DNA of 64,000 bases, from positions 333,025 through 397,024 of the forward strand of contig CAZRAM010000003.1 of NCBI GenBank assembly GCA_964598145.1, written 5' to 3'. The notes under the pieces were generated by a model. It saw only the letters and a program-made list of their open reading frames with translations, made no database searches and was not told the origin of the DNA. Made by a program: the position numbers and the translations under genes. The stretch is from an uncultured Pseudomonadales bacterium (lineage in GTDB: Bacteria > Pseudomonadota > Gammaproteobacteria > Pseudomonadales > JAHEIH01). Below, piece by piece: positions 19,401 to 64,000 of this stretch. The first letter of the stretch is position 1. Each line of letters opens with the position of its first letter.

Positions 19401-19404
19401 CAAT

Positions 19405-21444: not shown

Positions 21445-21446
21445 GG

Positions 21447-27341: not shown

Positions 27342-27431
27342 CGAGAAAATACTGATCGTTTTTTGCTTCTAAGTTGTTATTTGAGGCTTTTAATTCGCCT
27401 TAAATGGTGTGGTGTTTAAGGAAAAACGACC

Positions 27432-40553: not shown

Positions 40554-40814
40554 ATGAACGTTTTTAAAATCATGTTGACCGGTGTGATCTGCTTAAGCCT
40601 GATGGCCTGTGTTAACCAAGCCAAGTTGCGTAAAGAACGTGAATTAGCGGGCGCCGATGACGGCAAAATTTGTCGTATGGAACAGGTTGCCGGTAAGCTC
40701 ATTCGCGAACGAATTTGCTACACACCCGAACAGCTTGAAAGGATTCGCGAAGCATCACAAAATGCCAAAGATAGCATGGACCGTCGAGGCGCTATAGCTA
40801 CTCCCCAGGGTTAA
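40554..40814 (+). CDS. Small lipoprotein with conserved two-Cys motif
   Basis: AAGGAG at 40543-40548 lies 5 nt before ATG 40554. Signal peptide MNVFKIMLTGVICLSLMAC has lipobox LMAC. The mature part contains KICRMEQVAGKLIRERICYTPEQLERI. Its stop overlaps the next ATG (TAATG). Confidence 0.7.
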   Translation: MNVFKIMLTGVICLSLMACVNQAKLRKERELAGADDGKICRMEQVAGKLIRERICYTPEQLERIREASQNAKDSMDRRGAIATPQG

Positions 40815-42607: not shown

Positions 42608-44064
42608 GCATCTCGTTCCGGTAAAAATGCTGGGTAGTGCTTGGCCCGGCCGATTGACTGATTATGTAGTGCCTGTCTGACTTGCCATACACTGGCGGTT
42701 TTAACTGTGTTGTTAAGAGTATGGAAACGAAGGCATGTGTCGTCCCAAGCTAGCCCCATTGCCCTTAGTATGGGAGTTATCGTCGCTTGTGGATCCTTTA
42801 CGAGAGCTTCGTAGCGCACACTGTAAACGTCCTCAGGATAGAACTTTTGCCAATGCTCCTTTAGCGCTTGGCAATATTCGGCATATTCGACGATATGCTG
42901 TGGGTTGCAGGCGTAATCCATGGCAGGTGCTAGCCGCTGTTGGTATATAGATAGTGCGTTATCTCTGAGATCGCGTTCAGTGATAACGATTTTTGCTTTG
43001 GGAAACAGCTGCTTAATTTTATGGATATGCCACAGGTTGTCAGGCCGCTTGTCTGTCACCCAGGGTTTATCGTTGGCCACGCGCGATATCTGCTGTAAGT
43101 ATTGCGAAACCGCTTGCTGTTGTTTGCTTGGGTTGAGGCCCTGCGCCAATTTTGGGAAAAGCGTGAGTTCTCCTCCCGCAGCAATGGCGGGGTGGGCGGC
43201 GAGCATTTGCTCTAATAGGGTTGAGCCCGAGCGGAACATGCCGCAGATAAACACGAGATTGTGTGCAGTACTGATAGCTTGATTGGTAACAGGTTGGATA
43301 GCCTCTTCAAAGCGCGCACGCCACAACTTTGGATTAAAGGCTCTATTGAATCGCGCGTTAAGCGCATTAGCCGCTTGAAATGTCTGCCAGGCCTCCACGT
43401 ATAGTTTGGAGGCTTCAAGCTGGTGGCCAATTTCATAGAGCATGTTGCAGTATTGGTCTGGGTCCGATTGGGTGCGAGCTAGGCAGTCTTTTAGTGTGGT
43501 CAGCATGGAGCCGTCGCGCTGCATGGCGGCGAGGCGTGTTAGGCCGGTTGGGTACTGTTTGTCGTCATGTGGAATCGATGACAGTAGCTGCTTGGCTTGT
43601 TCTTTTTCGCCTCTATCCTCGTACAGGTTGGCGAGATTAATGATGGCGGCAGCATACCCTGGAGCTAGTTCAACGGCTCGTTTGAAGGTTGCTTCGGCCA
43701 TGTCGTCGTCTAGGATTTCTTCGCGCTGTAAAATCGCGATATTGTTATAGGCCTCCGCGGGATGTTGCAGCCCCATATCGATGGATTGCTTGTAAAGAGA
43801 AATAGCTTGTTCAACTAATCCGGCTTTAGCGGCGTAGTAGGCTTTGTTGTAACAATTGTCAGGATCTTGGACTGAGAACAGTTCACTGGCCGCCTCGGGG
43901 GTTTGACTTCCTAGGTAAAGGTTGGCCAAGGCAATACGATATTGGTCCTTTTCCGGAAAATCAGCGATAAGCAATTTTAAACGCTCGATTGCGGTCGAAA
44001 TATCCCCCTGTTGATAGGCTTGCAGGGCTCTTTCGTAGCGTGAACGCTCTGAATCGGCTGGCAT
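42604..44064 (-). CDS. TPR-repeat protein with C-terminal PAPS-dependent sulfotransferase domain
   Basis: 486 aa with no signal peptide and N-terminal TPRs. The 5-prime-PSB loop is FICGMFRSGSTLLEQ and the 3-prime-PB region is ITERDLRDNALS. Its stop overlaps the oxygenase stop (convergent, 4 nt). Confidence 0.75.
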   Translation of the reverse strand: MPADSERSRYERALQAYQQGDISTAIERLKLLIADFPEKDQYRIALANLYLGSQTPEAASELFSVQDPDNCYNKAYYAAKAGLVEQAISLYKQSIDMGLQHPAEAYNNIAILQREEILDDDMAEATFKRAVELAPGYAAAIINLANLYEDRGEKEQAKQLLSSIPHDDKQYPTGLTRLAAMQRDGSMLTTLKDCLARTQSDPDQYCNMLYEIGHQLEASKLYVEAWQTFQAANALNARFNRAFNPKLWRARFEEAIQPVTNQAISTAHNLVFICGMFRSGSTLLEQMLAAHPAIAAGGELTLFPKLAQGLNPSKQQQAVSQYLQQISRVANDKPWVTDKRPDNLWHIHKIKQLFPKAKIVITERDLRDNALSIYQQRLAPAMDYACNPQHIVEYAEYCQALKEHWQKFYPEDVYSVRYEALVKDPQATITPILRAMGLAWDDTCLRFHTLNNTVKTASVWQVRQALHNQSIGRAKHYPAFLPERDA

Positions 44065-44080
44065 TCGGTTTCCTTATATT

Positions 44081-44092
44081 TTGTCGCGACAA
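44081..44092. promoter_or_regulatory. Perfect 12-bp palindrome TTGTCGCGACAA upstream of the sulfotransferase gene
   Basis: Seen at 44081-44092, 17 nt upstream of ATG 44064. Function unknown; possibly an operator. Confidence 0.3.
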
Positions 44093-44122
44093 AAAAAAAC
44101 AGCGGGCATGGCCCGCTGTTTT
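44091..44122 (-). terminator. Rho-independent terminator of the TonB-dependent receptor gene
   Basis: CAGCGGGC-ATG-GCCCGCTG is a perfect 8-bp GC-rich stem at 44100-44118. On the minus strand it is followed by nine U (plus-strand A9 at 44091-44099). T4 on the plus-strand side could make it bidirectional. Confidence 0.85.
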
Positions 44123-44136
44123 CGCTAACAGTAACC

Positions 44137-46953
44137 TTAGAAGCTGAAGGTTACGTTGGCGCTGACGTAACGACCCAGAGTGTCGTAGAAACCAGCGATG
44201 GTGTTAGCGTTAGATGACAAAGTACTGCCCACCATTGGAGGCTCTTTGTCCAGCAAGTTACGCACAGTACCAGAAACTTCAATGTTTTCACTTACGGTGT
44301 AAGCAGCATTCAAGTCAATGTAAGACTGTGAACCCAGGTTATCCTGAGCAATAACGTCGGTAGCGCCATCATAAGTCACGCCACCGAAGTAACGCCACTT
44401 GGCACCTACGCTGTAATCGCCTTTGGTGAAGTTAGTAGACAACATACCACGCCATTCGGGAGTGACGAAACAGCTAGTGCTGATCAAGCCCACACAGTCT
44501 TCGCGAGTGGTTTCGTCGCCGGGCAGAGTCAGAGTTTCTTTCTTCAGCATGTGTGAAGCAGAGAACTTAAAGCTCAGAGCGCCGCCAGCAAGTTCCATGG
44601 CGTAAGCTGCTGCCAAGTCGATACCTTCGTAGTTGATTTCACCCAAGTTCTGGTTGTTGCTTTCGATGTAGCCAGATGTACCACGCCACAGTGTGCCTGC
44701 AGTACCACGGTTAATCAGACCACAGAAGGTGGCGTTGTTGTTAACCGCACACTGCTCCAGAATGGTTTCTGCACCTACAGAGTCAATCGCGTCTTTCAGT
44801 TCGATGCTCCAGTAGTCAACCGAGAAGGTCAAGTTCTCGATAGGATCAACAACTACACCAAAGGTGAAGGTGTCTGCAACTTCGGGTTTCAGTTCAGTGT
44901 TACCACCGAATACGCCGTTGTACTGAGACGCGGGGCTTACATCGATGTTGCCGTATTGAGCGGCAGTCACACCTGTGCGAGCACACTGTTCAGCAGTGAA
45001 TACTGGGTTCGCGCCTGCACAGCCGTCAACACCGTTCCACAGACCCAAGTTAGAGGGTGCAAACATCTCGATTACTGAGGGTGAACGAATTGCACGGTTG
45101 ACACCGGTGCGGATACGCAGTGAATCCAAAGGCTCGTAGCTAAGTGCCACTTTGAAGGTATTGTGATTACCAGCCAATGAGTAGTCTGATGAACGAGCAC
45201 CGATCTCAGTGGTGAAGTTATCCAACACTGGAATCGCAGCTTCGAAGAACAAGTCGGTTACGTTATAAGCACCTTCAATGCTTGGAGTAGGACCACCTTG
45301 ACCTAACAGTGAACCGTCTTCATAAACAGAGTCCGCGTTGCGATCGAATTTAATATCACGACGTTCCATACCCGCAGCGATGCTGATAGTGCGGTCAGTA
45401 GTACCGAGGCTGTAACCAGTGTCACCGCTGACGAAACCTGAGAAGATTTCTTGGCTGATACCGGCGCCCAGGATCGCCACACCCGTTAACGAGTCAGCTT
45501 GCTCAGAAGTCACACCTTGGTAGGTGAATACATCGTAGGTAGCATTTTCCAGCGCTTCAGAAATCTTAGGCGCAAAGAAGTCGTTGATGTAGGTTGAGTA
45601 TGAGTTTACGCGACCTTTTTGGTAGTTAACATCGTAGTCCCAACCATCAGCCAACGTGCCTTCTACACCCAGCACCATGCGGAAGCTGTTGTTTTCCAGA
45701 ATGTTAGAACGTGGACCACCTTCAACGTTACGTTTACCGATGTAAGCACCGATAGTGCCGTTTTCATCGAAGCCTGGCGCTGAGAACAGTGACAGGAACT
45801 GTGCACGTTGTGCGTCGCTGAACAGATCTGAGCTCAGAGGAATTTCATACATTTCAGCATAGAACGTACCTGACTCAGCAATCTGTGCTTTAGTGCGGTA
45901 ATCCATGTAAGAGAATTCGCCGTAGATGCGAGTGTTGTCGTTGATAGCGTATTTAACATTACCACCGAAGGTCCATTTTTCATCGGGACGCATGAAGTGG
46001 TTAATAGGCGCGTAGTTATAAGTCTCACGGCCTGCTCCAGTGCGGGGAGCGAATGAGCTATCATCTTGCAGTGCAAACCAGCCTTCTTCGCCTGCAGGGT
46101 CGTAAACGCCGTCAACAACTGGTGCTAAGAAGAAGTTAGGTACAGGTGTAGTACTAGAACCGCCACACGCAGTACCGCCGCCGTTCAGTGCACACGAAGA
46201 GTAGTCTCGCGCTTCTTGACGCAGCTCACTACCTTTACGCCAAGTGGCGAACATGGTGGCATTACCTTTGCCTTCAGCGAAGTTGCTACCGATTAAGATG
46301 TCGATAGTGTCGGCTTGGCCATCTACACCGTTACCACCTTTGGGGTAATCGAAGCCGCGAGCATCCATCAAACCTTGGATGTAAGTGTTGTCGTTATCGT
46401 GCATGAAGCCCGAAGTACCCATGTTGATTTCAACACCTTCGAAATCTTCACGCAGTACGAAGTTAACAACACCCGCTACAGCGTCTGCACCGTACACGGT
46501 AGATGCACCACCGGTCAGTACTTCAACACGCTCGATCATTGAGGTAGGAATTTGGTTTACGTCAGCAGCGGCTGAGCTAAATGCACCACCGGGTGACATA
46601 CGACGGCCGTTGATCAGAACCAATGTACGGTTCGCACCCATACCACGCAGGTCAAGGGTAGCGTTACCAGAGGCACCGTTTGAAATGTAAGAGTTATCGC
46701 CAGCTTCCAACTGAGGCAAGCTGTTCAAGAAGTCTTCGATCTTGTTGATACCGGTCGCTTTAATTTCGAGTGCAGTTGAAACAGTAACAGGGCTCGCGCT
46801 TTCAAAACCATCGGTTTTAATGCGTGAACCAGTGACTACTACTTCTTCGAGATCAGCATCAGCAGCAATTGTGTGAGCGGCGGGCAGTACTGACAATGCA
46901 GCAGTTGTACCCATCGCAAACTTAATAGCCGTAGCTAGTTTGCTTTTTTTCAT
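44137..46953 (-). CDS. TonB-dependent outer-membrane receptor
   Basis: 938 aa with signal peptide MKKSKLATAIKFAMGTTAALSVLPAAHTIAA, TonB box/plug LEEVVVTGSRI, and a beta-barrel with alternating aromatic pattern. The terminal residues are NVTFSF. Confidence 0.92.
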   Translation of the reverse strand: MKKSKLATAIKFAMGTTAALSVLPAAHTIAADADLEEVVVTGSRIKTDGFESASPVTVSTALEIKATGINKIEDFLNSLPQLEAGDNSYISNGASGNATLDLRGMGANRTLVLINGRRMSPGGAFSSAAADVNQIPTSMIERVEVLTGGASTVYGADAVAGVVNFVLREDFEGVEINMGTSGFMHDNDNTYIQGLMDARGFDYPKGGNGVDGQADTIDILIGSNFAEGKGNATMFATWRKGSELRQEARDYSSCALNGGGTACGGSSTTPVPNFFLAPVVDGVYDPAGEEGWFALQDDSSFAPRTGAGRETYNYAPINHFMRPDEKWTFGGNVKYAINDNTRIYGEFSYMDYRTKAQIAESGTFYAEMYEIPLSSDLFSDAQRAQFLSLFSAPGFDENGTIGAYIGKRNVEGGPRSNILENNSFRMVLGVEGTLADGWDYDVNYQKGRVNSYSTYINDFFAPKISEALENATYDVFTYQGVTSEQADSLTGVAILGAGISQEIFSGFVSGDTGYSLGTTDRTISIAAGMERRDIKFDRNADSVYEDGSLLGQGGPTPSIEGAYNVTDLFFEAAIPVLDNFTTEIGARSSDYSLAGNHNTFKVALSYEPLDSLRIRTGVNRAIRSPSVIEMFAPSNLGLWNGVDGCAGANPVFTAEQCARTGVTAAQYGNIDVSPASQYNGVFGGNTELKPEVADTFTFGVVVDPIENLTFSVDYWSIELKDAIDSVGAETILEQCAVNNNATFCGLINRGTAGTLWRGTSGYIESNNQNLGEINYEGIDLAAAYAMELAGGALSFKFSASHMLKKETLTLPGDETTREDCVGLISTSCFVTPEWRGMLSTNFTKGDYSVGAKWRYFGGVTYDGATDVIAQDNLGSQSYIDLNAAYTVSENIEVSGTVRNLLDKEPPMVGSTLSSNANTIAGFYDTLGRYVSANVTFSF

Positions 46954-52768: not shown

Positions 52769-54898
52769 ATGAAGCCAAATGAAGTAGATCCACTGGTACA
52801 GTGTCTACTCGCCATGGCGCGCTTTCACGACGTTACCGCTTCAGCCGAGGCGGTAACCTCGGGATTGCCCTTGGTCGACGGCAAGCTGACACCTTCTCTG
52901 TTCAGCCGCGCCGCAGCAAGACTCAACATGACCAGCAAGCTTGTCGCCAAGGACTTGGCGCAACTGCAAGCGGCACATTTTCTCCCCATTATTCTGCTTA
53001 ACGATGACGATTCGGCGTGCGTGTTAACCGGCTGGAGCGAAGACGGCCGCAGTGCAAAAGTGCTGCTGCCTGAACTGAATACCGCCGCGGTGGATATTCC
53101 TCTCGAACAACTGAAAAGCCGCTACACCGGTACCGCCATCATGACCCGCCCGGTGTTCCAGTTTGATCACTCCATGAGCAAGCGTCGCACCGAGGAAGAG
53201 GGACACTGGTTCTGGAGTGCGATTAAGGCCAACCGCGTGGTGTACCGCGATGTACTACTGGCCGCCTTCTTCGTCAATATTTTTGCCCTCGCCCTGCCAC
53301 TGTTTACCATGAACGTGTACGACAGGGTGGTGCCCAACCACGCCATGGAAACGCTGTGGATGTTGGCCTCGGGTGTGGTGCTGATTATGTTGGCCGATGT
53401 GGCGCTGCGCACCGTGCGGGCCTACTTCCTCGATCTCGCCGGGCGCCGTGTCGACATTAGTCTTTCCGCCAAAATCATGGAGCGGGTGCTGGGGCTGAAA
53501 CTGGAAGCACGGCCGAATTCGGTGGGGTCGTTTGCGTCGAATTTGCGCTCGTTTGAATCGGTGCGCGACTTCATTACCTCGGCCTCGGTCACCACTTTGA
53601 TCGATTTACCGTTCTCTATTTTGTTTATCGCGGTGATCGCCTGGATCGCGTGGCCGATTGTTATTCCGGTGCTGATCGCGGTGTTAATTGTGCTTGGCTA
53701 TGCTTTAGCTACACAGGCGCGTTTGAAAACCCTGTCGGAAACCATGTACGTGGCCGGCGCCATGCGTAACTCGACGCTGATCGAATCCTTGGTGGGTTTA
53801 GAAACCCTCAAGGCGATGGGCGCCGAAGGCAACATGCAGCGCAAGTGGGAAAAGACCACTAGCTTCCTCGCTCGCATCGGCGTGCAGCTGCGCTTGCTGT
53901 CGAACGCCAGTATTTCAGTCACCCAGTGGACCCAGCAGATGTGTTCCATCGCTGTGATCATTACCGGTGTCTACCTGATTACTCAAGGGGAGTTGAGCAT
54001 GGGTGGCTTGATCGCCACCAACATGCTGGCTAGCCGAGTGATGATGCCTTTTTCACAAGCTGCGGGATTGATCTTGCAGTATCACACTGCGCGCACCTCG
54101 CTCGATTCGCTCGACGAAGTGATGGCCAAACCCGTCGAGCGCGAAGAGGGCCGCCAGTTCCTGTCGCGCAACCACATCGACGGCAACTTGGTGTTCAACA
54201 ATGTCAGTTTTGCCTATCCCGGCAGCGATATCGGCGCACTGCGCAACATTAACTTTAGCGTTAAAGCCGGTGAAACGGTGGTGGTACTTGGCCGAGTTGG
54301 CAGTGGTAAATCGACCCTGTTGAAGTTGGCGATGGGGCTTTATTCACCCAGCGAAGGCGCCATTACCATCGACGGAATCGACATCCGCCAGCTCGACCCC
54401 GCCGACCTGCGGTTGGGGGTGGGGTACGTGCCGCAAGACGTGGTGTTGTTCCGCGGCACCTTGCGCGAAAACATCATGTTGGCGCAGCGCCACGTGAGCG
54501 ACGCTGAGATCATGCGCGCCGCTGAAATGGCTGGCTTGGATGAGTTTATTAAGCGCCACCCCAAAGGCTTGGATATGGATGTGGGCGAGCGCGGCGAATC
54601 GCTATCGGGCGGCCAGCGCAAGGGTGTGGCTCTGGCACGCGCCATGGTGCACAGCCCCTCGGTGATGTTTATGGATGAACCCACCGGCTCGATGGATCAC
54701 TCCACCGAAGCATCGGTGGTGAAACAGTTGAAGAAATACTCGGTGGGCAAAACCCTGTTTTTGATTACCCACCGCACGTCGCTGTTGGATTTGGCCGATC
54801 GCATTGTGGTGATCGATAACGGACAAGTGGTCGCGAACGGTCCCCGCGACAACGTGGTGGAAGCGCTGCGTCAGGGCAAAATTGGGAAGGCGAGCTAA
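52769..54898 (+). CDS. Type I secretion system permease/ATPase with N-terminal C39-like (non-catalytic) domain
   Basis: 709 aa with an N-terminal roughly 130-aa peptidase-C39-like fold and a six-helix TMD. Walker A GRVGSGKST, signature LSGGQRK, Walker B VMFMDEPT. Confidence 0.9.
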   Translation: MKPNEVDPLVQCLLAMARFHDVTASAEAVTSGLPLVDGKLTPSLFSRAAARLNMTSKLVAKDLAQLQAAHFLPIILLNDDDSACVLTGWSEDGRSAKVLLPELNTAAVDIPLEQLKSRYTGTAIMTRPVFQFDHSMSKRRTEEEGHWFWSAIKANRVVYRDVLLAAFFVNIFALALPLFTMNVYDRVVPNHAMETLWMLASGVVLIMLADVALRTVRAYFLDLAGRRVDISLSAKIMERVLGLKLEARPNSVGSFASNLRSFESVRDFITSASVTTLIDLPFSILFIAVIAWIAWPIVIPVLIAVLIVLGYALATQARLKTLSETMYVAGAMRNSTLIESLVGLETLKAMGAEGNMQRKWEKTTSFLARIGVQLRLLSNASISVTQWTQQMCSIAVIITGVYLITQGELSMGGLIATNMLASRVMMPFSQAAGLILQYHTARTSLDSLDEVMAKPVEREEGRQFLSRNHIDGNLVFNNVSFAYPGSDIGALRNINFSVKAGETVVVLGRVGSGKSTLLKLAMGLYSPSEGAITIDGIDIRQLDPADLRLGVGYVPQDVVLFRGTLRENIMLAQRHVSDAEIMRAAEMAGLDEFIKRHPKGLDMDVGERGESLSGGQRKGVALARAMVHSPSVMFMDEPTGSMDHSTEASVVKQLKKYSVGKTLFLITHRTSLLDLADRIVVIDNGQVVANGPRDNVVEALRQGKIGKAS

Positions 54899-56352
54899 TG
54901 TCAGATCAGCAAGAACCAGCATTGCCGCCAGAATTGCAGCAACCCCCCGAGCCCAAAAAAGACTTTTTGGACCGCGCCAGCGACAACTTTCTTGTGCGCC
55001 TGTTCGACCGCTTCATCTTTGCCGTGTTTGGCAAATGGCTGAAGGATGTCTCCGCTGAAGAGCAACACTGGAACGCCGACGTTAACCGCGCATTTGTCGA
55101 GCAGCAACCGCTGCGCGTGCACAGCCTGCTGTACACCATCGGTGTGGTGGTGCTGTTTTTGGTGCTGTGGGCCTCGTGGGCCGAGATCGACGAAGTCACT
55201 CGCGGCGAAGCGCGTGTGATTCCCTCGCAGCAGGTGCAAATTATTCAGTCGCAAGACGGCGGGGTGGTGAAGGAAATTCTTATCCGCGAGGGCGATATTG
55301 TCGAGCAGGGGCAGTTGTTAATTAGCCTGGATCAGACACGATCAGAGTCGATGTTGCGCGAAAGCCGGGCCGAACTGCTGGGATTGCGCGCCAAAGTAGA
55401 GCGTTTAAGCTCGGTGGTAAACGATCAAGCTTTCGAGCCCAGCGCGGAGCTGCAAGAGCTGATTCCCACTATTTTGGAGCAGGAAAAACGCCTCTACGGC
55501 GATAACCTGCAGCGCTTGAACGCGATCCGCAATATCGCCGACGAGCAGTTGATTCAGCGCCAGCAAGAATTGTCCGAGTTAGAGGCACGCCGCACCCAAT
55601 TGAGCAAGGCCTTGGAGTTGAGCACCCGCGAGTTGAATGTGACCCGTCCCTTGGTGAGTTCTGGTGCGGTGTCAGAGGTGGAGCTACTGCGACTGGAGCG
55701 CGACACTACCAATATCAGCGGTGAGCTTGAGCAGACCAAGGCTCAGATCGAGAAGTCTAAATCGTCAATTACCGAGGCGCGCAATAGTAAGCAAGAAGTT
55801 GAACTGGCTTTCTTCAACGAGATGCGCGAAGAGCTGTCGGCCACTATCGCCCGCGTTAACGCATTGGAAGAAAGCAGCACCGGTCTGACCGACCGCGTGA
55901 ACCAAACGCTAGTGAAATCCCCGGTTAAGGGCACCATCAAGCGCCTGTATTTCAACACCGTTGGGGGTGTCGTGTTGCCTGGTCGCGAGATCGTCGAGAT
56001 CGTACCGCTCGACGACACGCTGTTGCTAGAAGCCAAGATTCAGCCGCGCGATATCGCCTTCCTGCGCCCCGGCCAAGAGGCCATGGTGAAATTTACCGCC
56101 TACGATTTTGTGGTTTATGGCGGCCTTAAGGGCAGCGTTGAGCGCATTGGTGCCGATACGATCATAGACGAAGAAGGAAATGCCTACTATAACGTAAGGG
56201 TGAGAACGACCGAGTCGTTCAACAATGACGATATGCCGATTATTCCCGGCATGGTGGCCGAGGTCGATATCCTCACCGGCAAGAAAACGATCATGGCCTA
56301 TTTGATGAAACCCGTATTACGCGCCAAGCAGTACGCCTTAACGGAACGATAG
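54898..56352 (+). CDS. HlyD-family type I secretion periplasmic adaptor
   Basis: 484 aa; its start overlaps the ABC gene stop (TAATG). One TM helix, a long coiled coil, a lipoyl/beta-barrel segment (VKSPVKGTIKRLYFNTVGGVV), and a C-terminal MAYLMKPVL. Confidence 0.9.
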   Translation: MSDQQEPALPPELQQPPEPKKDFLDRASDNFLVRLFDRFIFAVFGKWLKDVSAEEQHWNADVNRAFVEQQPLRVHSLLYTIGVVVLFLVLWASWAEIDEVTRGEARVIPSQQVQIIQSQDGGVVKEILIREGDIVEQGQLLISLDQTRSESMLRESRAELLGLRAKVERLSSVVNDQAFEPSAELQELIPTILEQEKRLYGDNLQRLNAIRNIADEQLIQRQQELSELEARRTQLSKALELSTRELNVTRPLVSSGAVSEVELLRLERDTTNISGELEQTKAQIEKSKSSITEARNSKQEVELAFFNEMREELSATIARVNALEESSTGLTDRVNQTLVKSPVKGTIKRLYFNTVGGVVLPGREIVEIVPLDDTLLLEAKIQPRDIAFLRPGQEAMVKFTAYDFVVYGGLKGSVERIGADTIIDEEGNAYYNVRVRTTESFNNDDMPIIPGMVAEVDILTGKKTIMAYLMKPVLRAKQYALTER

Positions 56353-56976
56353 ATGAAGCACATTTTTGTGGGTTACGGGGGTCGCCTGCGCCCTCGTTGG
56401 CAGGAAGCCTTTTCCGACGCCCAGGGATTGTCATCGCTGTTTGAATTGACCCCCGCTCGCGAGGGCGAAAAGCGTATGCTGTGGTTCGATATTTCCAACA
56501 CCTCGGCGCAAGAGCGTATGGCCTTGGTGAATCAATGCATTGCCTCCGGCTCGCCGGTGATCGTGATGTCTTCCCTGCCCAACGACGACGAAGCCTACGA
56601 GATGCTGCGCAACGGCGCTTACGGTTACTGCCACAACGTGGCGGCGCCGAGCCAGTTGGTGGAAATTGCCCAGGTAGTCGAGCACGGTGGCCTTTGGGTG
56701 GGCGCGGCGGTAATGCGTCGCTTGGTGACTATCGCCAACCGCGTGTCAGATCACAAGCCCAAAAACGGCACCATCCGCGGTTTGGATGAACTGACCCACA
56801 AAGAACTCGATGTGGCAAAGCAAGTTGCCGTTGGCGCCACCAACAAAGAAATTGCCGAGCAATTGCATATGTCAGAACGCACCGTGAAAGCCCATCTTTC
56901 CTCGGTGTTCGACAAAATGGCGGTGCGCGATCGCGTGCAACTCGCCCTCACCATGAACAACGTCAAACTGCACTAA
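56353..56976 (+). CDS. LuxR-family regulator with atypical (pseudo-)receiver domain
   Basis: 207 aa; its ATG directly follows the adaptor stop (TAGATG). The C-terminal GerE HTH is LTHKELDVAKQVAVGATNKEIAEQLHMSERTVKAHLSSVFDKMAVRDRVQLA. The N-terminal REC-like fold keeps D46 (LWFDIS). It lacks the beta1 acidic pair (IFVGYGGR) and has H in place of the beta5 Lys (GAYGYCHN). Confidence 0.8.
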   Translation: MKHIFVGYGGRLRPRWQEAFSDAQGLSSLFELTPAREGEKRMLWFDISNTSAQERMALVNQCIASGSPVIVMSSLPNDDEAYEMLRNGAYGYCHNVAAPSQLVEIAQVVEHGGLWVGAAVMRRLVTIANRVSDHKPKNGTIRGLDELTHKELDVAKQVAVGATNKEIAEQLHMSERTVKAHLSSVFDKMAVRDRVQLALTMNNVKLH

Positions 56977-57022
56977 ATAACCAAAATTCGCCTAAAAAGC
57001 GCCATTTTTTCATTTTGGTTAT
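56977..57022. promoter_or_regulatory. Perfect 11-bp inverted repeat ATAACCAAAAT-N24-ATTTTGGTTAT between the regulator and adhesin genes
   Basis: Arms lie at 56977-56987 and 57012-57022, starting 1 nt after the regulator stop codon. It could be a stem-loop terminator (AT-rich stem with a T-run inside the loop) or a protein operator. Confidence 0.45.
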
Positions 57023-57140
57023 ATAGATGCTATTTCTAAATGCTTAACTGTTCTTAAACACGCCCAATAGTCCAATGTCGTGGACATGACCTTTTCCTAC
57101 TATTACTGCTAAGAAAATCTTTAGACGAAGGAATCACGTC

Positions 57141-60100
57141 ATGGCCAGTCAAGCAATCGCAACCGTCGCAGCAGTATTAGGAACCGCCTTCGCCCGTAAT
57201 GAAAACGGCGAAATGCGTGAAATTAAAGCCGGAGATACCATCTACGAGGGTGAGGTGTTAGTAACCCCCGATGGTAGCTCGGTAGAGTTGAGCATGATGG
57301 ACGGTTCTCCCCTCGTGGTTAGTGGCGTTAACGAGACCCTGCTGACTCCCGACGTGGTGGCAGAACTGGCGGCTAACGCGCAAGAAGCGGCAGCCAGTCA
57401 AGACACCTTGGATGAGTTGATCTCGGGCATTCGTGGCCTTGACGGAGGCAGCGAAGAAGAGCAAATCCTGGCCGCCTTGGAAGGCGACGGCAACCTCGAT
57501 GACCTGTTAGAAGAAACTGCAGCCGGCTTGGGCGGCGGTGGCCAAGGCGAAGGCCACTCGTTCGTAATGCTGGATCGCGTGAACGAGCAAGTGGCATTCA
57601 GTGGCGCGGGTTCGACCGATGGCGCGATTGTTGAAGGCGATGCCAGCCAAGAGCAAGACGTTAACCTGCCTCCACAAGTGGCCAATGTGGATCTGGGTGA
57701 AATCGACGAAGACGGCGCTATTACCTTTACTGCACAAGACCTGCTGTTCGGTTCGTTTGACCCCGAGGGTCAGCCCTTGACCGTGAGCAACGTGAGCCTG
57801 ACCAGTGGCAACGGCACCCTAACCGATAACGGCGACGGTACCTTTACCTTTACCCCTGATGCAGACTGGAATGGCGACGTATCGTTTGGTTTCGACGTCA
57901 CCGACGACCTGATCACCGTGCCTAACACCGCAACCCTGACGGTTGCGCCTGTAAACGATGCCCCCGAAGTGGGGCCCATCACCATCGTTGATACCGAAGT
58001 AACCGCCCCCGACGGCGCGGTGATTGTTGGTATTCCCGAAGATGGTTCGTTGATCATTACCGAAGACCAATTAATTGGTGTGACCGATGATATCGACAAC
58101 ACCGATTCAGAGTTAAGCGTGGTAGATATCAGCGTTGATAATGGCACCATTGTTAACAACGGTGACGGCACCTTTACCTTTACTCCCGATCCCGATTTCA
58201 ACGGCGATGTCGTGGTGAGCTTTGAAGTTAGCGATGGTGAATTGTCGGATACCGGTTCAGCCACCTTCACCGTGGTCCCCGTGGTAGACGTGGTCGATGA
58301 CGGCGTACAGATCGAGCAAGATACCCCCGTGATTGTGAACGTGATGGACAACGATACCTTCGAAGGCGAAGGTACCGTGACAGCGGTGGGTACACCCAGC
58401 AATGGTTCGGCGTCGGTAAATGCCGATAATACCGTGACCTACGTGCCCAACCCTGGCTTCATTGGCGAAGATACCTTTACCTACACCGTAACCACCGAAA
58501 CGGGCGATACCGAAACCGCCACCGTAACCGTGACCATCGTGTCTGCGGACAATCCTGCCAACCTTGGCACCGACAGCGGCGAAGTGACCGAGGGCGGCCC
58601 GCTGACCGATAGCGGCACCATTAGCATCGATGATCCCGATGCCGGCGAAAATTTCTTCCAAGTACAAGATGGTACCCAAGGTGATTTCGGTAGCTTTGAG
58701 ATCGACGAAAACGGCAACTGGACCTACACCTTGGACGACACCCTCGACGCGGTACAGTCACTGGGCGAAGGCGATCAACTGACCGAAATCTTCCCCGTGC
58801 AGAGCGTCGATGGCACCGAAACCACCGTGGTGGTGACCATTAACGGCACCAACGACGTGCCCGTGTTTACTCCCGGTAGCAACACCGTTGGCGACGACGC
58901 TGGCACCGTGAAAGAAGAAGAGCCCCTGCAGGCCACTGGTACTGTATCGATCGAAGATACCGATACCAACGAAGACATGTTCCAGCCCCAAGACAACACC
59001 GAGGGCGAATACGGCGACTTCACCATCGATGAAGACGGCAACTGGGTTTACGATCTGAACAACGACGACCCACGTATTCAATCCCTGCCCGAAGGTGAAG
59101 AACTGACCGAAACCTTCCCCGTGACCAGTGTGGATGGCACCGAAACCGAAGTCGTGATCACCATTGTGGGTACCAACGACGTGCCTACCATTACCGGTGA
59201 TACTGGTAGTGTGACCGAAGATACCGTGCTGAGCATCAACGGTACCGTGACCATCGTTGATACCGACGCCGGTGAATCTGAATTTGCACCACAAACAGGC
59301 ACTACCGGTAACCACGGCACATTCACCCTGGCTGCAAATGGCGCGTGGGTATACACCTTGGATAACGATTCAGCCGCCGTCCAAGCGCTGGGCGAAGGCG
59401 ATACCCTGACCGATGAATTCACTGTGATCAGTGCTGATGGCACTGAAAGCGATACCGTGACCATTACTATTAATGGCACCAACGATACACCTAACTTTAC
59501 CGACGGTTCACAAACCCTGGGTGACGATGCAGGTAGCGTTTTTGAAGATGAACCCCTCAGCGCATCAGGTACCGTGAGTATTAGCGATACCGACGAAGGT
59601 GAAGAAGCGTTTGACCCCCAAACTAACACCTCGGGTGACTACGGCGATTTCACCATCGATGCCGATGGTAACTGGACCTACAACCTCGACAATGCCAACG
59701 ACACAGTGCAAGGACTTGGCGAAGGCGAAATTCTGGAAGAAACCTTCCCAGTTATTACCGTAGACGGTACCGAAACCGAAGTGGTGATTACCATTACTGG
59801 CCGCAACGATGGCCCCGTGGTGTCTGTTGAAGATTTGGCCGCTGTAGAAGATGGCGCAGCAATTACCGGCAATGCCGGCTTTACTGATCTGGATGTTAAC
59901 GATACCCACACCTACACCGTAAGCGACATGCCCGCGGGCCAAGGTTCAGTAAGCATTGATGCCGCAACAGGCGAGTACACCTACAACCCTGGTAATGATT
60001 TCCAATACTTGGCCGAAGGTCAAACGACCGATGTTTCATTTGATGTGACAGTGACGGATAGCGAGGGTGCGAGTGATACAAAAACTGTGACTGTGACAGT

Positions 60101-63100
60101 GACGGGAGTTAACGACTCTCCTGAGGTTGAAGGAACGATTTCAGATCAAAATCTGGCTGAAGACTTCACGTCCTACACTATTGATCTGAATGCAGCATTT
60201 AAAGACAACGATAACACAGATGGTGAGCTGACCTTTGGAGTTAGTGGTAACTCAAACGTTGGCGTGAGTATCGTTGGTGGTATTGCCACGATTAGCCAAG
60301 CGACAGCTGACTGGAATGGCGTTGAGAATCTTACCTTTACAGCGACTGACCCCGATGGTTTAAGTGCAAGCCAGGATGTGACCTTTATTGTAAGTCCTGT
60401 GGTGGATATTGCTGATGACACAGGTAATGTTGTTGAGGATACCGCGACGATTATCAATGTGTTGGGTAACGATGCTTTTGAGAACAGCAATGCGGCTGTC
60501 ACTTCAGTAGGCAATGCCACTGGCGGTACCGTGGCATTAGAAAATGGTGTGGTGACTTTCACACCAACACCCAACTACAACGGTGCGGCTGGTTTTGATT
60601 ACACCGTGACTTCTGGCGGTGTAACCGAAAATGCAACTGTTGCACTTACCGTCACCCCAGTGAATGATCCAGCATCCTTGGCCATGAATGCTCCCGAATC
60701 ATTTACAGAAGGTTCTGCGTCAGCGGGTGACTTGGTAACTACTGTGGCATCGGTATCAGATCCTGATGGCGATGGTACTTTCACGTACGCCATTAGTGAT
60801 AATACTAACTATACGATTGCGGCGGATGGCACCGTAAGGTTAACGGCAGATGGTGCGGCGCTGGCGAATGCGGATGCTGGTCCAGAGCTACCTGCCTTTA
60901 CTGTGACCGCGACATCGGGTGGAGACTTCTCATCTGTAGCGACATCGGCCAGTATTGATCCTTCAGTGACCCCAGTGAATGATCCAGCATCCTTGACCAT
61001 GAATGCTCCCGAATCATTTACAGAAGGTTCTGCGTCAGCGGGTGACTTGGTAACTACTGTGGCATCGGTATCAGATCCTGATGGCGATGGTACTTTCACG
61101 TACGCCATTAGTGATAATACTAACTATACGATTGCGGCGGATGGCACCGTAAGGTTAACGGCAGATGGTGCGGCGCTGGCGAATGCGGATGCTGGTCCAG
61201 AGCTACCTGCCTTTACTGTGACCGCGACATCGGGTGGAGACTTCTCATCTGTAGCGACATCGGCCAGTATTGATCCTTCAGTGACCCCAGTGAATGATGC
61301 TCCAACATTAATTGTTACCCTCGAAAATGACTTTATCGAAGATGACATTAGTAATGCTATTGGTAGTATTGTTGCTACCTTTACAGTCTCAGACCCTGAA
61401 AACGATACAGTAACAGTAGTACTTAGTGATACCACGAATTACGCACTTTCAGGCAATAACGTTGTATTAACTAGTGCCGGTTTGGTACTAGTTAATAGTG
61501 GCCAGGATTTGCCAGCATTTACTTTGACGCCAAATGATGGACAAGTAGATGGATCTTCAGTAAGCGTTGATCCATCAGTTGATTCTCATCCTGTTGATGA
61601 ATCAAGTTCTCAATCAATATCAATTACTAATGTTTCAGGCTCTACAATTCAAGATGATCTGTTTTATACAGGTCTTGATGGGTTTGGTGGGGTTATGTTG
61701 ATTGAAAACTTTGGTGAAAATGTTGAATTAACCTCATCAACTGGCGTACCACTTGTTTACTCTGAAAACTTTGATGAAGAGTCTGGTATTTATACATATT
61801 CCGCTACTGCTAATGGTGATCCTGTATTCACAATAACAGTAGATACCAATAATACGGACATTAATTATACCTTTGAAATGTTTGACTCAATAAAGCTTCA
61901 GACATCATATACTTTCGATGCAGACTTCCTGTCACAAGGTGGCAAAGACGAGTACTACTTCTTAACAAATGACGGAAGTCTCTCGAAAGGTTCAGTTGAT
62001 ACTGATGCCCCTGAAAATACTTCAGTTACTATTTCAGCCATAGATGCAGATGGAAATCAAATTGATGTGAATGCAAATGCTACTGTTGTGGGTGCAGGTT
62101 CTGGCTTAACAGTGGGACCGGATGAATGGATTGTACTTACTTATGATCCAGAGAATTTTCAGTCAGCAGTTGAAGTTGTAATAGCAGAAGATGCTAACGG
62201 AACAATCCCTGATAATGACTTTTGGTATCATCTAAAAGTCACCGGTTTTGACTCTAATGGCACGGAAATCGTTTATGAAGCCTTGGTTGATCAGGGCGAT
62301 GCAAGTACAGGGCCTCAATTAGATTCTGATGGTACTTTATTACTCGTAGCGTCATCATTGACGGGTGATCAGTTGGATGCTTCTGGGAATCCTATAGCTA
62401 CAGACTTATCTTTTGTAAATATTTCCAAAGTTGAGTTGTCTGGCTTAGATAATGGTTTAACAGGAAGTGGAAAAAATGATTCTCTAGTAATCACATCTAT
62501 CTCAAACAATGTCACTGAATCAATTGATGACTTGGATTTGAACTTTAGCTTTACAGGTACGGATGATTCTGGTGACTCAGTTTCAAATCAAATAAGCATC
62601 AATGTCACTGATGGAATAACTCCATCAAGTTATGATGGCACTGGTGATTTGGTTCAGGGTGGTTCTACAGATGATGTTCTTACACCTGTTAATTTGACAA
62701 ATTTAGATGGTGGTAATGCAGTATTTGGTTATGAAGGAAATGATACAATCGATGGCGGATTAAATGATGATGTTTTGACTGGAGGATTGGGAGAAGATGT
62801 CTTTGCCTGGTCATTAGCTGACCCAAATTCAAATGATGTTATTACAGATTTTGAAATTACTGATACAGATAGTTCAGGCGATATTTCTGCAGCAGAGATC
62901 CTTGATACTAATACAACAGTTGACGCCATCGACCTAAGTGACCTGTTGGTTGACGAAGAATCTAACCCAATCACGGATTATTTGAGTGTTACTTATGATG
63001 GCACCAATACCATTATCAATGTAACCCCTGATGGTTCGGGTGGAACAACTTCGCAGATTATTACAGTTGAAGGTGTTGATTTAACCGGAGGTCTTGATGA

Positions 63101-63167
63101 GGCTACTCAACAATCAACCATTATCCAAAATCTGATAGATGGTGGTAAGCTTGTTCTCGACCAGTAA
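57141..63167 (+). CDS. Giant LapA-like type I-secreted repeat adhesin (retention module, cadherin/Ig-like and VCBS repeats, RTX, C-terminal T1SS target domain)
   Basis: - 2008 aa, with SD GAAGGA upstream.
- The N-terminus MASQAIATVAAVLGTAFARNENGEMREIKAGDTIYEGEVLVTPDGSSVELSMMDGSPLVV resembles the LapA-type retention module.
- The motif TAAG..GGGGQGEGHSFVMLDRV follows.
- The body has repeated PVNDAP-bounded roughly 100-aa domains and five VCBS units.
- RTX nonamers are GYEGNDTIDGGLNDDVLTGGLGEDVFA.
- The C-terminus DVFAWSLAD..DVITDF..DAIDLSDLL resembles the VC_A0849-subclass secretion domain. Confidence 0.9.
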   Translation: MASQAIATVAAVLGTAFARNENGEMREIKAGDTIYEGEVLVTPDGSSVELSMMDGSPLVVSGVNETLLTPDVVAELAANAQEAAASQDTLDELISGIRGLDGGSEEEQILAALEGDGNLDDLLEETAAGLGGGGQGEGHSFVMLDRVNEQVAFSGAGSTDGAIVEGDASQEQDVNLPPQVANVDLGEIDEDGAITFTAQDLLFGSFDPEGQPLTVSNVSLTSGNGTLTDNGDGTFTFTPDADWNGDVSFGFDVTDDLITVPNTATLTVAPVNDAPEVGPITIVDTEVTAPDGAVIVGIPEDGSLIITEDQLIGVTDDIDNTDSELSVVDISVDNGTIVNNGDGTFTFTPDPDFNGDVVVSFEVSDGELSDTGSATFTVVPVVDVVDDGVQIEQDTPVIVNVMDNDTFEGEGTVTAVGTPSNGSASVNADNTVTYVPNPGFIGEDTFTYTVTTETGDTETATVTVTIVSADNPANLGTDSGEVTEGGPLTDSGTISIDDPDAGENFFQVQDGTQGDFGSFEIDENGNWTYTLDDTLDAVQSLGEGDQLTEIFPVQSVDGTETTVVVTINGTNDVPVFTPGSNTVGDDAGTVKEEEPLQATGTVSIEDTDTNEDMFQPQDNTEGEYGDFTIDEDGNWVYDLNNDDPRIQSLPEGEELTETFPVTSVDGTETEVVITIVGTNDVPTITGDTGSVTEDTVLSINGTVTIVDTDAGESEFAPQTGTTGNHGTFTLAANGAWVYTLDNDSAAVQALGEGDTLTDEFTVISADGTESDTVTITINGTNDTPNFTDGSQTLGDDAGSVFEDEPLSASGTVSISDTDEGEEAFDPQTNTSGDYGDFTIDADGNWTYNLDNANDTVQGLGEGEILEETFPVITVDGTETEVVITITGRNDGPVVSVEDLAAVEDGAAITGNAGFTDLDVNDTHTYTVSDMPAGQGSVSIDAATGEYTYNPGNDFQYLAEGQTTDVSFDVTVTDSEGASDTKTVTVTVTGVNDSPEVEGTISDQNLAEDFTSYTIDLNAAFKDNDNTDGELTFGVSGNSNVGVSIVGGIATISQATADWNGVENLTFTATDPDGLSASQDVTFIVSPVVDIADDTGNVVEDTATIINVLGNDAFENSNAAVTSVGNATGGTVALENGVVTFTPTPNYNGAAGFDYTVTSGGVTENATVALTVTPVNDPASLAMNAPESFTEGSASAGDLVTTVASVSDPDGDGTFTYAISDNTNYTIAADGTVRLTADGAALANADAGPELPAFTVTATSGGDFSSVATSASIDPSVTPVNDPASLTMNAPESFTEGSASAGDLVTTVASVSDPDGDGTFTYAISDNTNYTIAADGTVRLTADGAALANADAGPELPAFTVTATSGGDFSSVATSASIDPSVTPVNDAPTLIVTLENDFIEDDISNAIGSIVATFTVSDPENDTVTVVLSDTTNYALSGNNVVLTSAGLVLVNSGQDLPAFTLTPNDGQVDGSSVSVDPSVDSHPVDESSSQSISITNVSGSTIQDDLFYTGLDGFGGVMLIENFGENVELTSSTGVPLVYSENFDEESGIYTYSATANGDPVFTITVDTNNTDINYTFEMFDSIKLQTSYTFDADFLSQGGKDEYYFLTNDGSLSKGSVDTDAPENTSVTISAIDADGNQIDVNANATVVGAGSGLTVGPDEWIVLTYDPENFQSAVEVVIAEDANGTIPDNDFWYHLKVTGFDSNGTEIVYEALVDQGDASTGPQLDSDGTLLLVASSLTGDQLDASGNPIATDLSFVNISKVELSGLDNGLTGSGKNDSLVITSISNNVTESIDDLDLNFSFTGTDDSGDSVSNQISINVTDGITPSSYDGTGDLVQGGSTDDVLTPVNLTNLDGGNAVFGYEGNDTIDGGLNDDVLTGGLGEDVFAWSLADPNSNDVITDFEITDTDSSGDISAAEILDTNTTVDAIDLSDLLVDEESNPITDYLSVTYDGTNTIINVTPDGSGGTTSQIITVEGVDLTGGLDEATQQSTIIQNLIDGGKLVLDQ
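57516..57527 (+). other. Candidate LapG-type (BTLCP protease) dialanine processing site T-A-A-G
   Basis: Codons ACT GCA GCC GGC encode T126-A127-A128-G129, followed by the Gly-rich GLGGGGQGEGHSF. The context is as in characterised LapA-like substrates (established consensus [T/A/P]-A-A-[G/V]). Confidence 0.6.
58542..60122 (+). repeat. Five tandem VCBS-type repeat units (about 105 aa each), diverged
   Basis: The recurring pattern is G(D/S)F(T/E)IDxxGNW(T/V)Y(T/D/N)LDNxxxxVQxLGEGxxLTExFPVxSVDGTExxVVITIxGTND(V/T/G)P. The fifth unit is more divergent and ends in VTGVNDSP. Confidence 0.8.
60654..61298 (+). repeat. Near-identical 315-bp tandem duplication (2 copies) inside the adhesin gene
   Basis: By direct comparison, 60657-60971 and 60972-61286 are identical except G60681 versus A60996 (Ala to Thr). 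Each copy encodes one 105-aa PVNDPASL...IDPSVT domain. The ORF track shows the same duplication on the opposite strand (MAYVKVPSPSGSDTDATVVTK... twice). Confidence 0.95.
62727..62807 (+). repeat. RTX calcium-binding nonapeptide repeats (3 units)
   Basis: GYEGNDTID GGLNDDVLT GGLGEDVFA fits GGxGxDxUx. Confidence 0.8.
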
Positions 63168-63179
63168 GTAAGGATTTAT

Positions 63180-63521
63180 ATGCCCTACATCAAACGCAAC
63201 ACCGCCGGCCAAATCTCGGCGGTCTCTGAAGAAGCCCTCCCAGGCTTCTTGGAGGCTACCGATAAAGACGCCGACGACATCGCTGCCTTTGGGGTGGAAT
63301 TGATCGGTTCGGATGAAGCCGAACTGATCAAGACTGACCTTGAGTTCGTGCGGGTATTGGAAGACGTGATTGAGTTGTTGATGGCGAAGAACGTGATTCA
63401 ATTCACGGAATTGCCGGATGCCTCGCAGGCGAAAATGCTGAAACGTAAGAAGTTGCGTGATGGCATTACCAGTAAGCTGGATTTGTTGGATGAGGAAAGT
63501 TTGTTCTTTGGGCGTGATTAA
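63180..63521 (+). CDS. Small acidic hypothetical protein
   Basis: 113 aa, starting 12 nt after the adhesin stop. MPYIKRNTAGQISAVSEEALPGFLEATDKDADD...DLEFVRVLEDVIELLMAKNVIQFTELPDASQAKMLKRKKLR. GC-rich like the core genome and followed by a terminator. Confidence 0.6.
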   Translation: MPYIKRNTAGQISAVSEEALPGFLEATDKDADDIAAFGVELIGSDEAELIKTDLEFVRVLEDVIELLMAKNVIQFTELPDASQAKMLKRKKLRDGITSKLDLLDEESLFFGRD

Positions 63522-63540
63522 TTGATCCACTAAGATGATA

Positions 63541-63577
63541 AAGGCGATGAGCTTAAAGGTTTATCGCCTTTTTTATT
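63541..63577 (+). terminator. Rho-independent terminator after the small acidic ORF
   Basis: AAGGCGAT-N14-ATCGCCTT stem at 63541-63570, followed by TTTTATT. Confidence 0.7.
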
Positions 63578-63836
63578 GCCCGTAATGGGTTTTAGCCCTG
63601 ATGACGACAACAACACAGCGGTCGTCTTCGATTCGATACACAATACGATCTTGAAAGCTCAAGCGTACCGAGTAGTACCCCTTTAATTTTCCGATAAGTG
63701 GTTTGCCCTCATAGGGGGCGACAGCTATTTTGTGTCGCAGTATTTCTTTAAGTTTGTTTTTGAGTTTATCGGATAGCTTAGTTATATCTTTTTGCGCTTG
63801 CTTGGTAAGTTCTATCTTGTATCGGTAATCGCTCAC
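63573..63836 (-). CDS. Type II toxin-antitoxin system toxin, RelE/StbE/YoeB superfamily
   Basis: 87 aa, GTG start. The sequence KIELTKQAQKDITKL...YEGKPLIGKLKGYYSVRLSFQDRIVYRIEDDRCVVVVIRAKTHY is typical of RelE-fold mRNA interferases. Its start overlaps the antitoxin stop (GTGA). Confidence 0.8.
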   Translation of the reverse strand: MSDYRYKIELTKQAQKDITKLSDKLKNKLKEILRHKIAVAPYEGKPLIGKLKGYYSVRLSFQDRIVYRIEDDRCVVVVIRAKTHYGQ

Positions 63837-64000
63837 AGCGGCTCACCAAAAACATCTTCGAAACTATCTGTGTCACCTTTGTCGGCTTCTTTTGTCGATT
63901 GCTCAAAAGTCTTATTGAAATCAGGTTGCGACAGAATGTGTAGTGTTTCTATCAGACTGTCGTAATCTTCTGCCGACATGATCATCGCTTTGCCAGATTT
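63833..64000 (-). CDS. Phd/YefM-family antitoxin, C-terminal part (5-prime end outside window)
   Basis: The minus-strand frame reads KSGKAMIMSAEDYDSLIETLHILSQPDFNKTFEQSTKEADKGDTDSFEDVFGEPL, stop TGA at 63835-63833. The SAEDYDSLxETLxIL block is typical of Phd/YefM. Confidence 0.75.
   Translation of the reverse strand, partial: KSGKAMIMSAEDYDSLIETLHILSQPDFNKTFEQSTKEADKGDTDSFEDVFGEPL

Follow-up and report, generated by a model that had tools for sequence, protein, structure and literature searches.

A linked Lap-type adhesin locus with an embedded LuxR-type regulator gene and a candidate operator ahead of the adhesin gene

Introduction

In Pseudomonas, adhesins of the Lap type are secreted, anchored in their export pore and cleaved by the protease LapG, which LapD sequesters under the control of cyclic diguanylate (c-di-GMP) (reviewed in PMC6890996). 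The locus described here lies in a 64,000-nucleotide stretch of DNA from an uncultured Pseudomonadales bacterium (hereafter the window, meaning the whole stretch that was analysed), and comprises genes for an ABC exporter, a HlyD-type adaptor, a LuxR-type regulator and a 2008-residue adhesin. An initial annotation of the window had recognised a LapA-type two-step adhesin locus with an embedded LuxR pseudo-receiver regulator, a description that profile matches and an AlphaFold2 (AF2) fold bear out, and had gone on to read the locus as lacking both the outer-membrane component and the LapG/LapD switch, with remote or different control as the consequence. This second part has to be abandoned, as lapD, lapG and a gene for a TolC/OmpA-type outer-membrane protein lie directly downstream, on contigs L002 and L003, in the sister genome L089 and in relatives, and the left two-thirds of what is a complete Lap-type adhesin system of the canonical kind fall inside the window.

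With the Lap system of Pseudomonas fluorescens and P. putida (LapA, LapBCE, LapG, LapD) the locus shares the retention module and its TAAG site, an LssB/LapB-type ABC exporter, a HlyD adaptor and an outer-membrane protein of the TolC family, and the LapG and LapD of P. fluorescens are the best solved matches of its BTLCP protease and of its degenerate GGDEF-EAL receptor. It differs from that system in its gene order (ABC, HlyD, LuxR, adhesin and orf113, then lapD-lapG and the outer-membrane gene), in the OmpA-like domain fused to its outer-membrane protein, and in the cadherin-like, Big_9 and VCBS repeats of its adhesin passenger, with a minimal RTX block. It further possesses a LuxR-type pseudo-receiver gene of its own and a conserved gene for a 113-residue protein, neither of which, to our knowledge, is present in the lap loci of Pseudomonas.

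The Shewanella BpfA-AggABC-BpfG/BpfD cluster likewise links the genes for the adhesin, the type I secretion system (T1SS) and the LapG-like and LapD-like proteins. Its OmpA-like component is a separate gene, and TolC-like channel and OmpA-like protein are two separate genes in other systems too, whereas in the window locus the OmpA-like domain is fused to the TolC-like protein. We know of no LuxR gene in the BpfA cluster, nor of a dedicated regulator within the locus in any of the best-studied Lap systems (Pseudomonas, Vibrio and Shewanella). Regulators with a VpsT-type receiver and a LuxR domain do stand beside a T1SS operon with a large calcium-binding matrix protein in the Vibrio cpsQ-mfpABC and brpT-cabABC loci. 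These CpsQ/BrpT-type regulators carry the c-di-GMP motif W[F/L/M][T/S]R and the substrates are not retention-module adhesins, whereas the regulator family of the window locus is without that motif and the gene order differs.

The Vibrio cholerae adhesins FrhA and CraA are large type I secreted proteins under LapDG and c-di-GMP control, like the adhesin of the window locus (PMC6890996). In Vibrio, lapDG and the adhesins sit at separate loci, whereas in the window's system all parts are linked, and no embedded LuxR is described for FrhA/CraA (PMC6890996). That an adhesin locus can be without a LapE-like gene of its own, with unlinked components, was already known (PMC6890996). As for the regulator, the published map of the artA locus of Achromobacter xylosoxidans GN050 (tolC-hypothetical-hlyB-hlyD-luxR-artA-transglutaminase (BTLCP)-EAL protein; PMC9430717, Fig. 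5A) has luxR between hlyD and a retention-module adhesin, as in the window, so an embedded luxR in a Lap locus is not unprecedented; the likeness is one of gene maps, and tolC is there upstream of hlyB, unlike in the window locus. ArtA has its dialanine site at A113-A114, and the luxR gene is drawn on the map and not studied in that paper (PMC9430717). A full-text literature search returned no functional work on a LuxR gene that lies within a Lap locus, the artA map being the sole trace.

Results

The Lap genes continue beyond the window end

The genes of the system are listed below. Positions past base 64000 are window-equivalent positions, read from contig L002 turned into window orientation (as L092).

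52769-54898, plus strand: LssB/LapB-type type I secretion ABC permease/ATPase, 709 aa (TIGR03375, ABC_membrane, ABC_tran)
54898-56352, plus strand: HlyD/LapC-type periplasmic adaptor, 484 aa (TIGR01843, 386 bits, cutoff 209)
56353-56976, plus strand: LuxR/GerE-family regulator with a degenerate receiver, 207 aa (GerE, 65 bits; AF2 fold)
57141-63167, plus strand: LapA-type adhesin, 2008 aa (NF033682, TIGR03661 T1SS_VCA0849, TAAG motif)
64311-66242 (window-equivalent), minus strand: LapD-type protein, 643 aa (LapD_MoxY_N, GGDEF and EAL domains)
66273-66992 (window-equivalent), minus strand: BTLCP protease LapG, 239 aa (Peptidase_C93)
67175-69082 (window-equivalent; L002:62-1969), plus strand: TolC-family plus OmpA outer-membrane protein, 635 aa (two OEP domains, OmpA)

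An exact-protein look-up of the toxin encoded close to the window end retrieved four contigs. L002 (Logan SRR15635858) is 100% identical to window positions 61269-64000 and L003 to 62459-64000. Since the overlap of L002 covers the 3' part of the adhesin gene, where strains vary, L002 can be taken as the same genotype as the window. On this contig lapD begins 311 bp past base 64000 and the outer-membrane gene about 3.2 kb past the window end, and the switch and the pore had seemed to be lost because the window ends short of lapD. Inside the window their absence stands: profile searches of the flanks of the locus within the window found no LapG, LapD or outer-membrane gene, and the other large open reading frames (ORFs) of the window (a Pil-Chp-like chemosensory cluster, a TonB-dependent receptor, TPR-sulfotransferase proteins and similar) encode no Lap component. 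For the locus as such it does not stand, and lapG-lapD and an outer-membrane gene just past the window edge are what the initial annotation had itself named as speaking against its conclusion.

The same junction is found in three independent assemblies (L002, L003 and L001/L004). In the sister genome L089 (NCBI GCA_024639455.1, a 519-kb contig), whose regulator is 94% identical to that of the window, the order is DUF885-ABC-HlyD-LuxR-adhesin-orf113-toxin-antitoxin-LapD-LapG.

The two switch proteins encoded past the window end have LapG and LapD as their top NCBIfam matches, over the full length. The periplasmic domain of the LapD-type protein matches PF16448 LapD_MoxY_N (129 bits) with GWNQ present, and also matches 3PJV; the solved structure closest to the protein is P. 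fluorescens LapD (3PJW, E = 1.3e-41), and its motifs are degenerate, NGSDF standing instead of GGDEF and ECP instead of EAL, which makes it a receptor and not an enzyme. LapG scores 52 bits against Peptidase_C93 (cutoff 27), and in the alignment with its best solved relative, P. fluorescens LapG (4U65_E, E = 4.9e-50), the catalytic GDCEDY, AHM and LLD are aligned. The outer-membrane protein passes TIGR01844 type_I_sec_TolC (258 bits, cutoff 225) and is a TolC-family channel fused to a C-terminal OmpA-like peptidoglycan-binding domain. As far as a sequence can tell, every testable defining feature of a Lap system is present, the RTX block of the adhesin alone being marginal.

Exporter and adhesin

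The four window genes all lie on the plus strand and the ORF map agrees with the layout first proposed, in which the first three overlap or abut: the ABC stop and the HlyD start share 1 nt, the HlyD stop and the LuxR start abut, and a spacer of 164 bp separates the LuxR gene from the adhesin gene. The ABC exporter matches TIGR03375 LssB with 947 bits (cutoff 693) over residues 7-703, contains both the ABC_membrane and the ABC_tran domain, and belongs to a cluster whose members are named 'LapB' by the Joint Genome Institute. Its N-terminal match to Peptidase_C39 in Pfam (18.3 bits) falls below the cutoff of 22, and it does not count as a C39 bacteriocin-processing peptidase. By eye against the C39-like domain of HlyB, we take the catalytic position to be Pro8, and the N-terminal domain is probably C39-like and inactive as a peptidase. 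The earlier assignment of a C39-like exporter with a HlyD adaptor is thereby upheld.

The hallmarks of a two-step-secreted substrate that had been ascribed to the adhesin are for the most part confirmed. The retention module occupies residues 6-152 (NF033682 retention_LapA, 84.8 bits, cutoff 50), the dialanine site TAAG at residues 126-129 is the sole match to [T/A/P]AA[G/V] in the first 300 residues, and a type I secretion target domain is found C-terminally at residues 1899-2004 (TIGR03661 T1SS_VCA0849, 41.4 bits, cutoff 17.6). The passenger is made of cadherin-like, Big_9, VCBS and tandem-95 repeats. The RTX repeats are weaker than had been claimed, amounting to about three nonapeptides at roughly residues 1863-1889, with HemolysinCabind at 17.9 bits, under its cutoff of 23.

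A large part of this adhesin varies between strains. Compared with its counterpart in strain L001 (2559-8633; 2025 aa against 2008 aa), it is identical over the first ~320 residues, diverges across the next ~150 and is then unrelated, the unrelated part (window 58540-63167, residues ~470-2008) including the C-terminal secretion domain, while the genes flanking the adhesin are 98.6-99.3% identical between the two strains. The guanine-plus-cytosine (GC) content of the 3' part (61501-63167) is 0.386, against ~0.55 for the locus. It looks as though the passenger and C-terminus were replaced by recombination from a lower-GC donor. At 60654-61298, within the same gene, a 315-bp unit occurs twice with 99% identity, and the two encoded 105-aa domains differ at one residue, the mark of a recent duplication of the domain in frame.

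An embedded regulator conserved in related loci

The regulator has a GerE helix-turn-helix (65 bits) and no Response_reg match in Pfam. Its AF2 model (predicted local distance difference test, pLDDT, 87.8) is nonetheless that of a five-stranded receiver with a GerE helix-turn-helix, and its top fold matches in the PDB are LiaR, VraR, ChrA, RcsB, VpsT and NarL. In the family alignment strand 1 is not followed by an acidic pair (FVGYGG), a variable residue (N/V/A) stands opposite the Lys of NarL, and D46, at the phospho-Asp position, is nearly invariant. The regulator does not qualify as a phosphorylatable NarL/FixJ response regulator; its fold is still receiver-like, and 'pseudo-receiver' is a fair label. 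Invariant in the alignment are R15, W16, F20, W44, G-Y-(C)-H94 and HGGLW115, which give the family the signature LRxRW...W-x-D...GYCH...HGGLW; a ligand, perhaps c-di-GMP or a redox/metal signal, may be sensed through the invariant Arg, Trp, Cys and His. The VpsT-type c-di-GMP motif W[F/L/M][T/S]R, which was looked for, is absent, the family having HGGLW[VM][GPL] with no [TS]R, and sequence similarity to VpsT is confined to the helix-turn-helix (residues 145-204).

Homologues of the regulator are numerous, with 512 detectable in a 90%-clustered database and ~504 clusters at 50% identity (E <= 1e-30), and the nearest named organisms are Halieaceae, at ~45-50% identity. We compared 80 loci from species-representative genomes, all of them chosen through the LuxR gene, by tblastn with the proteins of the window and of L002. 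They come from Gammaproteobacteria (Halieaceae, Halomonadaceae, Cellvibrionaceae, Methylobacter) and Betaproteobacteria (Rhodocyclaceae, Comamonadaceae, Methylophilaceae, Hydrogenophilales), together with a small number of bins that carry the label Desulfuromonadales. The gene immediately preceding the regulator is HlyD in 79 of the 80, the ABC gene is present in 78/80, and a retention-module N-terminus follows downstream in 74/80. On contigs that extend far enough, 18 loci show LapD, 15 show LapG and 20 a TolC-like outer-membrane gene. Nine loci have the exact order of the window and L002 (adhesin, orf113, lapD on the minus strand, lapG on the minus strand), and the outer-membrane gene comes next, on the plus strand, in seven of these nine, the fetched stretch stopping short of it in L009 and L017. 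Other arrangements also occur: the outer-membrane gene is upstream of the ABC gene in Halomonas-type loci, and lapDG lie between regulator and adhesin in Methylotenera. By this gene-order comparison the embedded LuxR gene counts as a conserved member of the cassette, and the family is found almost only in such Lap loci.

A conserved motif ahead of the adhesin gene

The spacer between the LuxR and adhesin genes contains three elements on the plus strand.

56977-57024, plus strand: AT-rich, 11-bp perfect inverted repeat, ATAACCAAAAT...ATTTTGGTTAT, directly behind the LuxR stop
57061-57076, plus strand: copy of the adhesin-promoter motif, CGCCCAATAGTCCAAT (family consensus TG(T/G)MC-N4-GTMCAAT)
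57098-57103, plus strand: -10-like hexamer TACTAT, 22 nt downstream of GTCCAA

The heptamer GTCCAAT is found in 28/61 LuxR-to-adhesin spacers, the maximum among shuffled controls being 12. The aligned sites read (C/T)TG(T/G)MC-N4-GTMCAAT, with a TAnnnT hexamer 22-23 nt further on, and stand ~70-110 nt ahead of the adhesin start codon. On the two strands of the 1.70 Mb of locus DNA together, the strict pattern has 29 matches, and 28 of them fall in the 13 kb of LuxR-adhesin spacers. In 14 further loci the adhesin gene is 2-10 kb from the regulator gene, and in 10 of these the motif tracks the adhesin, lying 72-155 nt upstream of its coding start and not beside the regulator gene. No copy precedes the ABC, lapG or outer-membrane genes. 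Window and L089 share the block CGCCCAATAGTCCAATGTCGTGGACA without a difference, while its flanks have diverged. In L025 and L029 the motif is a perfect palindrome, TGGACTTAAGTCCA, which favours a dyad over a direct-repeat reading (GTCC-N6-GTCC).

A scan of 56300-57300 found no canonical -35/-10 (sigma-70) pair in the spacer, and the motif, a dyad lying directly against the -35, has the geometry of a class II promoter that depends on an activator. Because regulator and motif co-occur, we regard the regulator as the likely reader of the motif, and the copy at 57061-57076 is a candidate operator of the LuxR regulator. The inverted repeat at 56977-57024 folds as RNA with -11.8 kcal/mol (z = -3.35), its outer arms are conserved in L089, and it is possibly the end of the ABC-HlyD-LuxR transcript or a protein-binding site.

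Neighbouring genes

Four further elements follow the adhesin gene, and the window ends inside the last of them.

63180-63521, plus strand: orf113, acidic cytoplasmic protein of 113 aa, isoelectric point (pI) 4.45, starting 12 bp behind the adhesin stop
63540-63571, plus strand: strong terminator-like hairpin with a 14-bp stem and a T tract, between orf113 and the convergent toxin gene
63573-63836, minus strand: YoeB/ParE-family toxin (Pfam)
63833-64093, minus strand: Phd/YefM antitoxin, 86 aa (Pfam; completed from the L002 continuation, as the window ends at 64000)

The neighbours had been correctly named, with a DUF885 lipoprotein (lipobox LVAC) upstream of the ABC gene and an acidic ORF followed by a toxin-antitoxin module downstream. 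Related Lap loci contain homologues of orf113 with 34-51% identity, located either behind the adhesin or directly behind the LuxR gene and sharing the core TDLxFVRVLEDVIELL...FTELP. The protein has no match in Pfam or NCBIfam, and a Foldseek search of its AF2 model (pLDDT 71) against the PDB gives nothing below E = 3. The label 'tryptophan synthase subunit beta like protein' that some databases attach to its homologues finds no support here and was judged a mislabel. The orf113 protein may work with the regulator, as its partner or anti-activator, or may assist secretion as a cytoplasmic cofactor.

The toxin-antitoxin pair, within which the window end falls, stands between orf113 and lapD in the window lineage and in L089. 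In more distant relatives there is no room for such a pair, and its GC content is 0.42 against about 0.55; it is therefore a lineage-specific insertion.

Elsewhere in the window, a chemosensory cluster at 18825-28807 resembles the Pil-Chp (ChpA-like) control system of type IV pili, with a methyl-accepting chemotaxis protein of 679 aa (19405-21444) and a CheA-type kinase of 1562 aa (22238-26926) that has three Hpt matches, a CheW domain and a receiver domain. The region 40814-46953, with a GC content of ~0.50 that is under that of the adjoining regions, encodes a TPR plus 2OG-Fe(II) oxygenase protein (40814-42607, plus strand), a TPR plus sulfotransferase protein (42604-44064, minus strand) and, next to them, a TonB-dependent receptor of 938 aa (44137-46953, minus strand).

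Discussion

By homology with the Lap system of Pseudomonas, the ABC exporter, the HlyD adaptor and the TolC-family/OmpA protein would secrete the 2008-aa adhesin with its C-terminus first, and the N-terminal retention module would plug the pore and so hold the adhesin on the surface. Periplasmic LapG would cut the TAAG site at A127-A128 and free the adhesin, and at high c-di-GMP the inner-membrane receptor LapD would sequester LapG. Gene content and order, the domains, the catalytic or degenerate motifs and the conservation of the promoter motif are read directly from sequence. Secretion, cleavage and c-di-GMP control are proposed from homology, and the pairing of regulator with operator, together with the sign of regulation, from comparative evidence. 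For the regulator we propose that a dimer of it would bind TG(T/G)MC-N4-GTMCAAT, an imperfect palindrome abutting the -35 of the adhesin promoter, and would activate an adhesin-orf113 transcript that ends at the terminator at 63540-63571. Transcriptional control through the embedded regulator, which the initial annotation had offered, is plausible from gene order and the upstream motif; it would not serve as a replacement for LapD and LapG. Given the conserved position of the LuxR gene and a motif that tracks the adhesin gene, the regulator probably adds a layer of transcriptional control on top of the LapD/LapG switch.

We are highly confident that the locus is a Lap system whose parts are all present and linked. 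Weighing against it are the origin of the sequence past base 64000, which was taken from other assemblies and not from the window's own record, and the scores of the two switch proteins, which remain below the NCBIfam equivalog cutoffs (LapG 228 bits against 320 for NF045674, LapD 451 against 1020 for NF045673). A lineage with no linked outer-membrane component and no linked LapG/LapD, whose switch is remote or whose control is purely transcriptional, would agree with the absence of such genes inside the window; it is very improbable all the same, as lapD, lapG and the TolC/OmpA gene directly follow on contigs 100% identical to the window end and as the sister genome and many relatives have the same order, and it would require a strain-specific deletion that begins exactly behind base 64000. 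A chimeric contig would turn this adjacency into an artefact, and L002 is indeed a short-read metagenome contig, yet we give this even less credence, for the junction is shared by three independent assemblies and by the 519-kb contig of L089, and the order orf113-lapD-lapG-outer-membrane gene recurs in distant genera.

On the role of the regulator we are far less certain, and we favour, on balance, activation of the adhesin promoter through the motif, which the comparative sequence data suggest. The left half-site of the window motif (CGCCC) fits the consensus poorly, about one third of the loci have no regex match to the motif, and no promoter was found for the ABC-HlyD-LuxR unit, which only 24 bp separate from the DUF885 gene; each of these counts against such a reading. 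So does the selection of all loci through the LuxR gene, which means that the motif could belong to another factor common to them. The LuxR protein might accordingly have no part in controlling the adhesin promoter, autoregulating or tuning the ABC-HlyD-LuxR operon or acting on distant genes while something else binds the motif; under this selection, co-occurrence is not independent evidence, and the weak left half-site would fit as well. We consider this unlikely, although it deserves some weight: 28 of the 29 strict matches are in adhesin upstream DNA of LuxR-containing loci, the dyad form suits a dimeric GerE helix-turn-helix protein, the family is almost confined to Lap loci, and the motif is missing ahead of the ABC, lapG and outer-membrane genes. 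A regulator that binds c-di-GMP in the manner of VpsT or CpsQ, so that one signal serves both transcription and surface retention, is a more doubtful proposition. It would account for a receiver and GerE architecture that is without the phosphorylation residues, as in VpsT, which is itself among the fold matches, and the invariant R15 W16, W44, W115 and R123 could stack a dinucleotide; however, W[F/L/M][T/S]R is absent, with LW[VM][GP] in its place, and outside the helix-turn-helix there is no sequence similarity to VpsT.

The Lap system of this bacterium is itself of the ordinary c-di-GMP/LapD/LapG type, and what stands out is the uncharacterised regulator, candidate operator and small protein of its subtype. 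It is possible, and we advance it tentatively, that a large subclass of Lap systems in Gamma- and Betaproteobacteria carries a hard-wired module of a pseudo-receiver LuxR protein, a dyad operator and a 113-aa protein co-transcribed with either the adhesin or the regulator. The loci compared here outline a widespread environmental Lap subtype with a dedicated regulator, a tightly conserved promoter element and a small protein that is likewise conserved, with members in Halieaceae, Halomonadaceae, Rhodocyclaceae, Comamonadaceae, Methylophilaceae and apparently Achromobacter. If the regulator does sense a ligand, this would couple the synthesis of the adhesin to its retention under LapD/LapG control. 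For the transcription of giant adhesins, a layer less understood than the post-translational switch, the subtype offers a concrete candidate regulator-operator pair.

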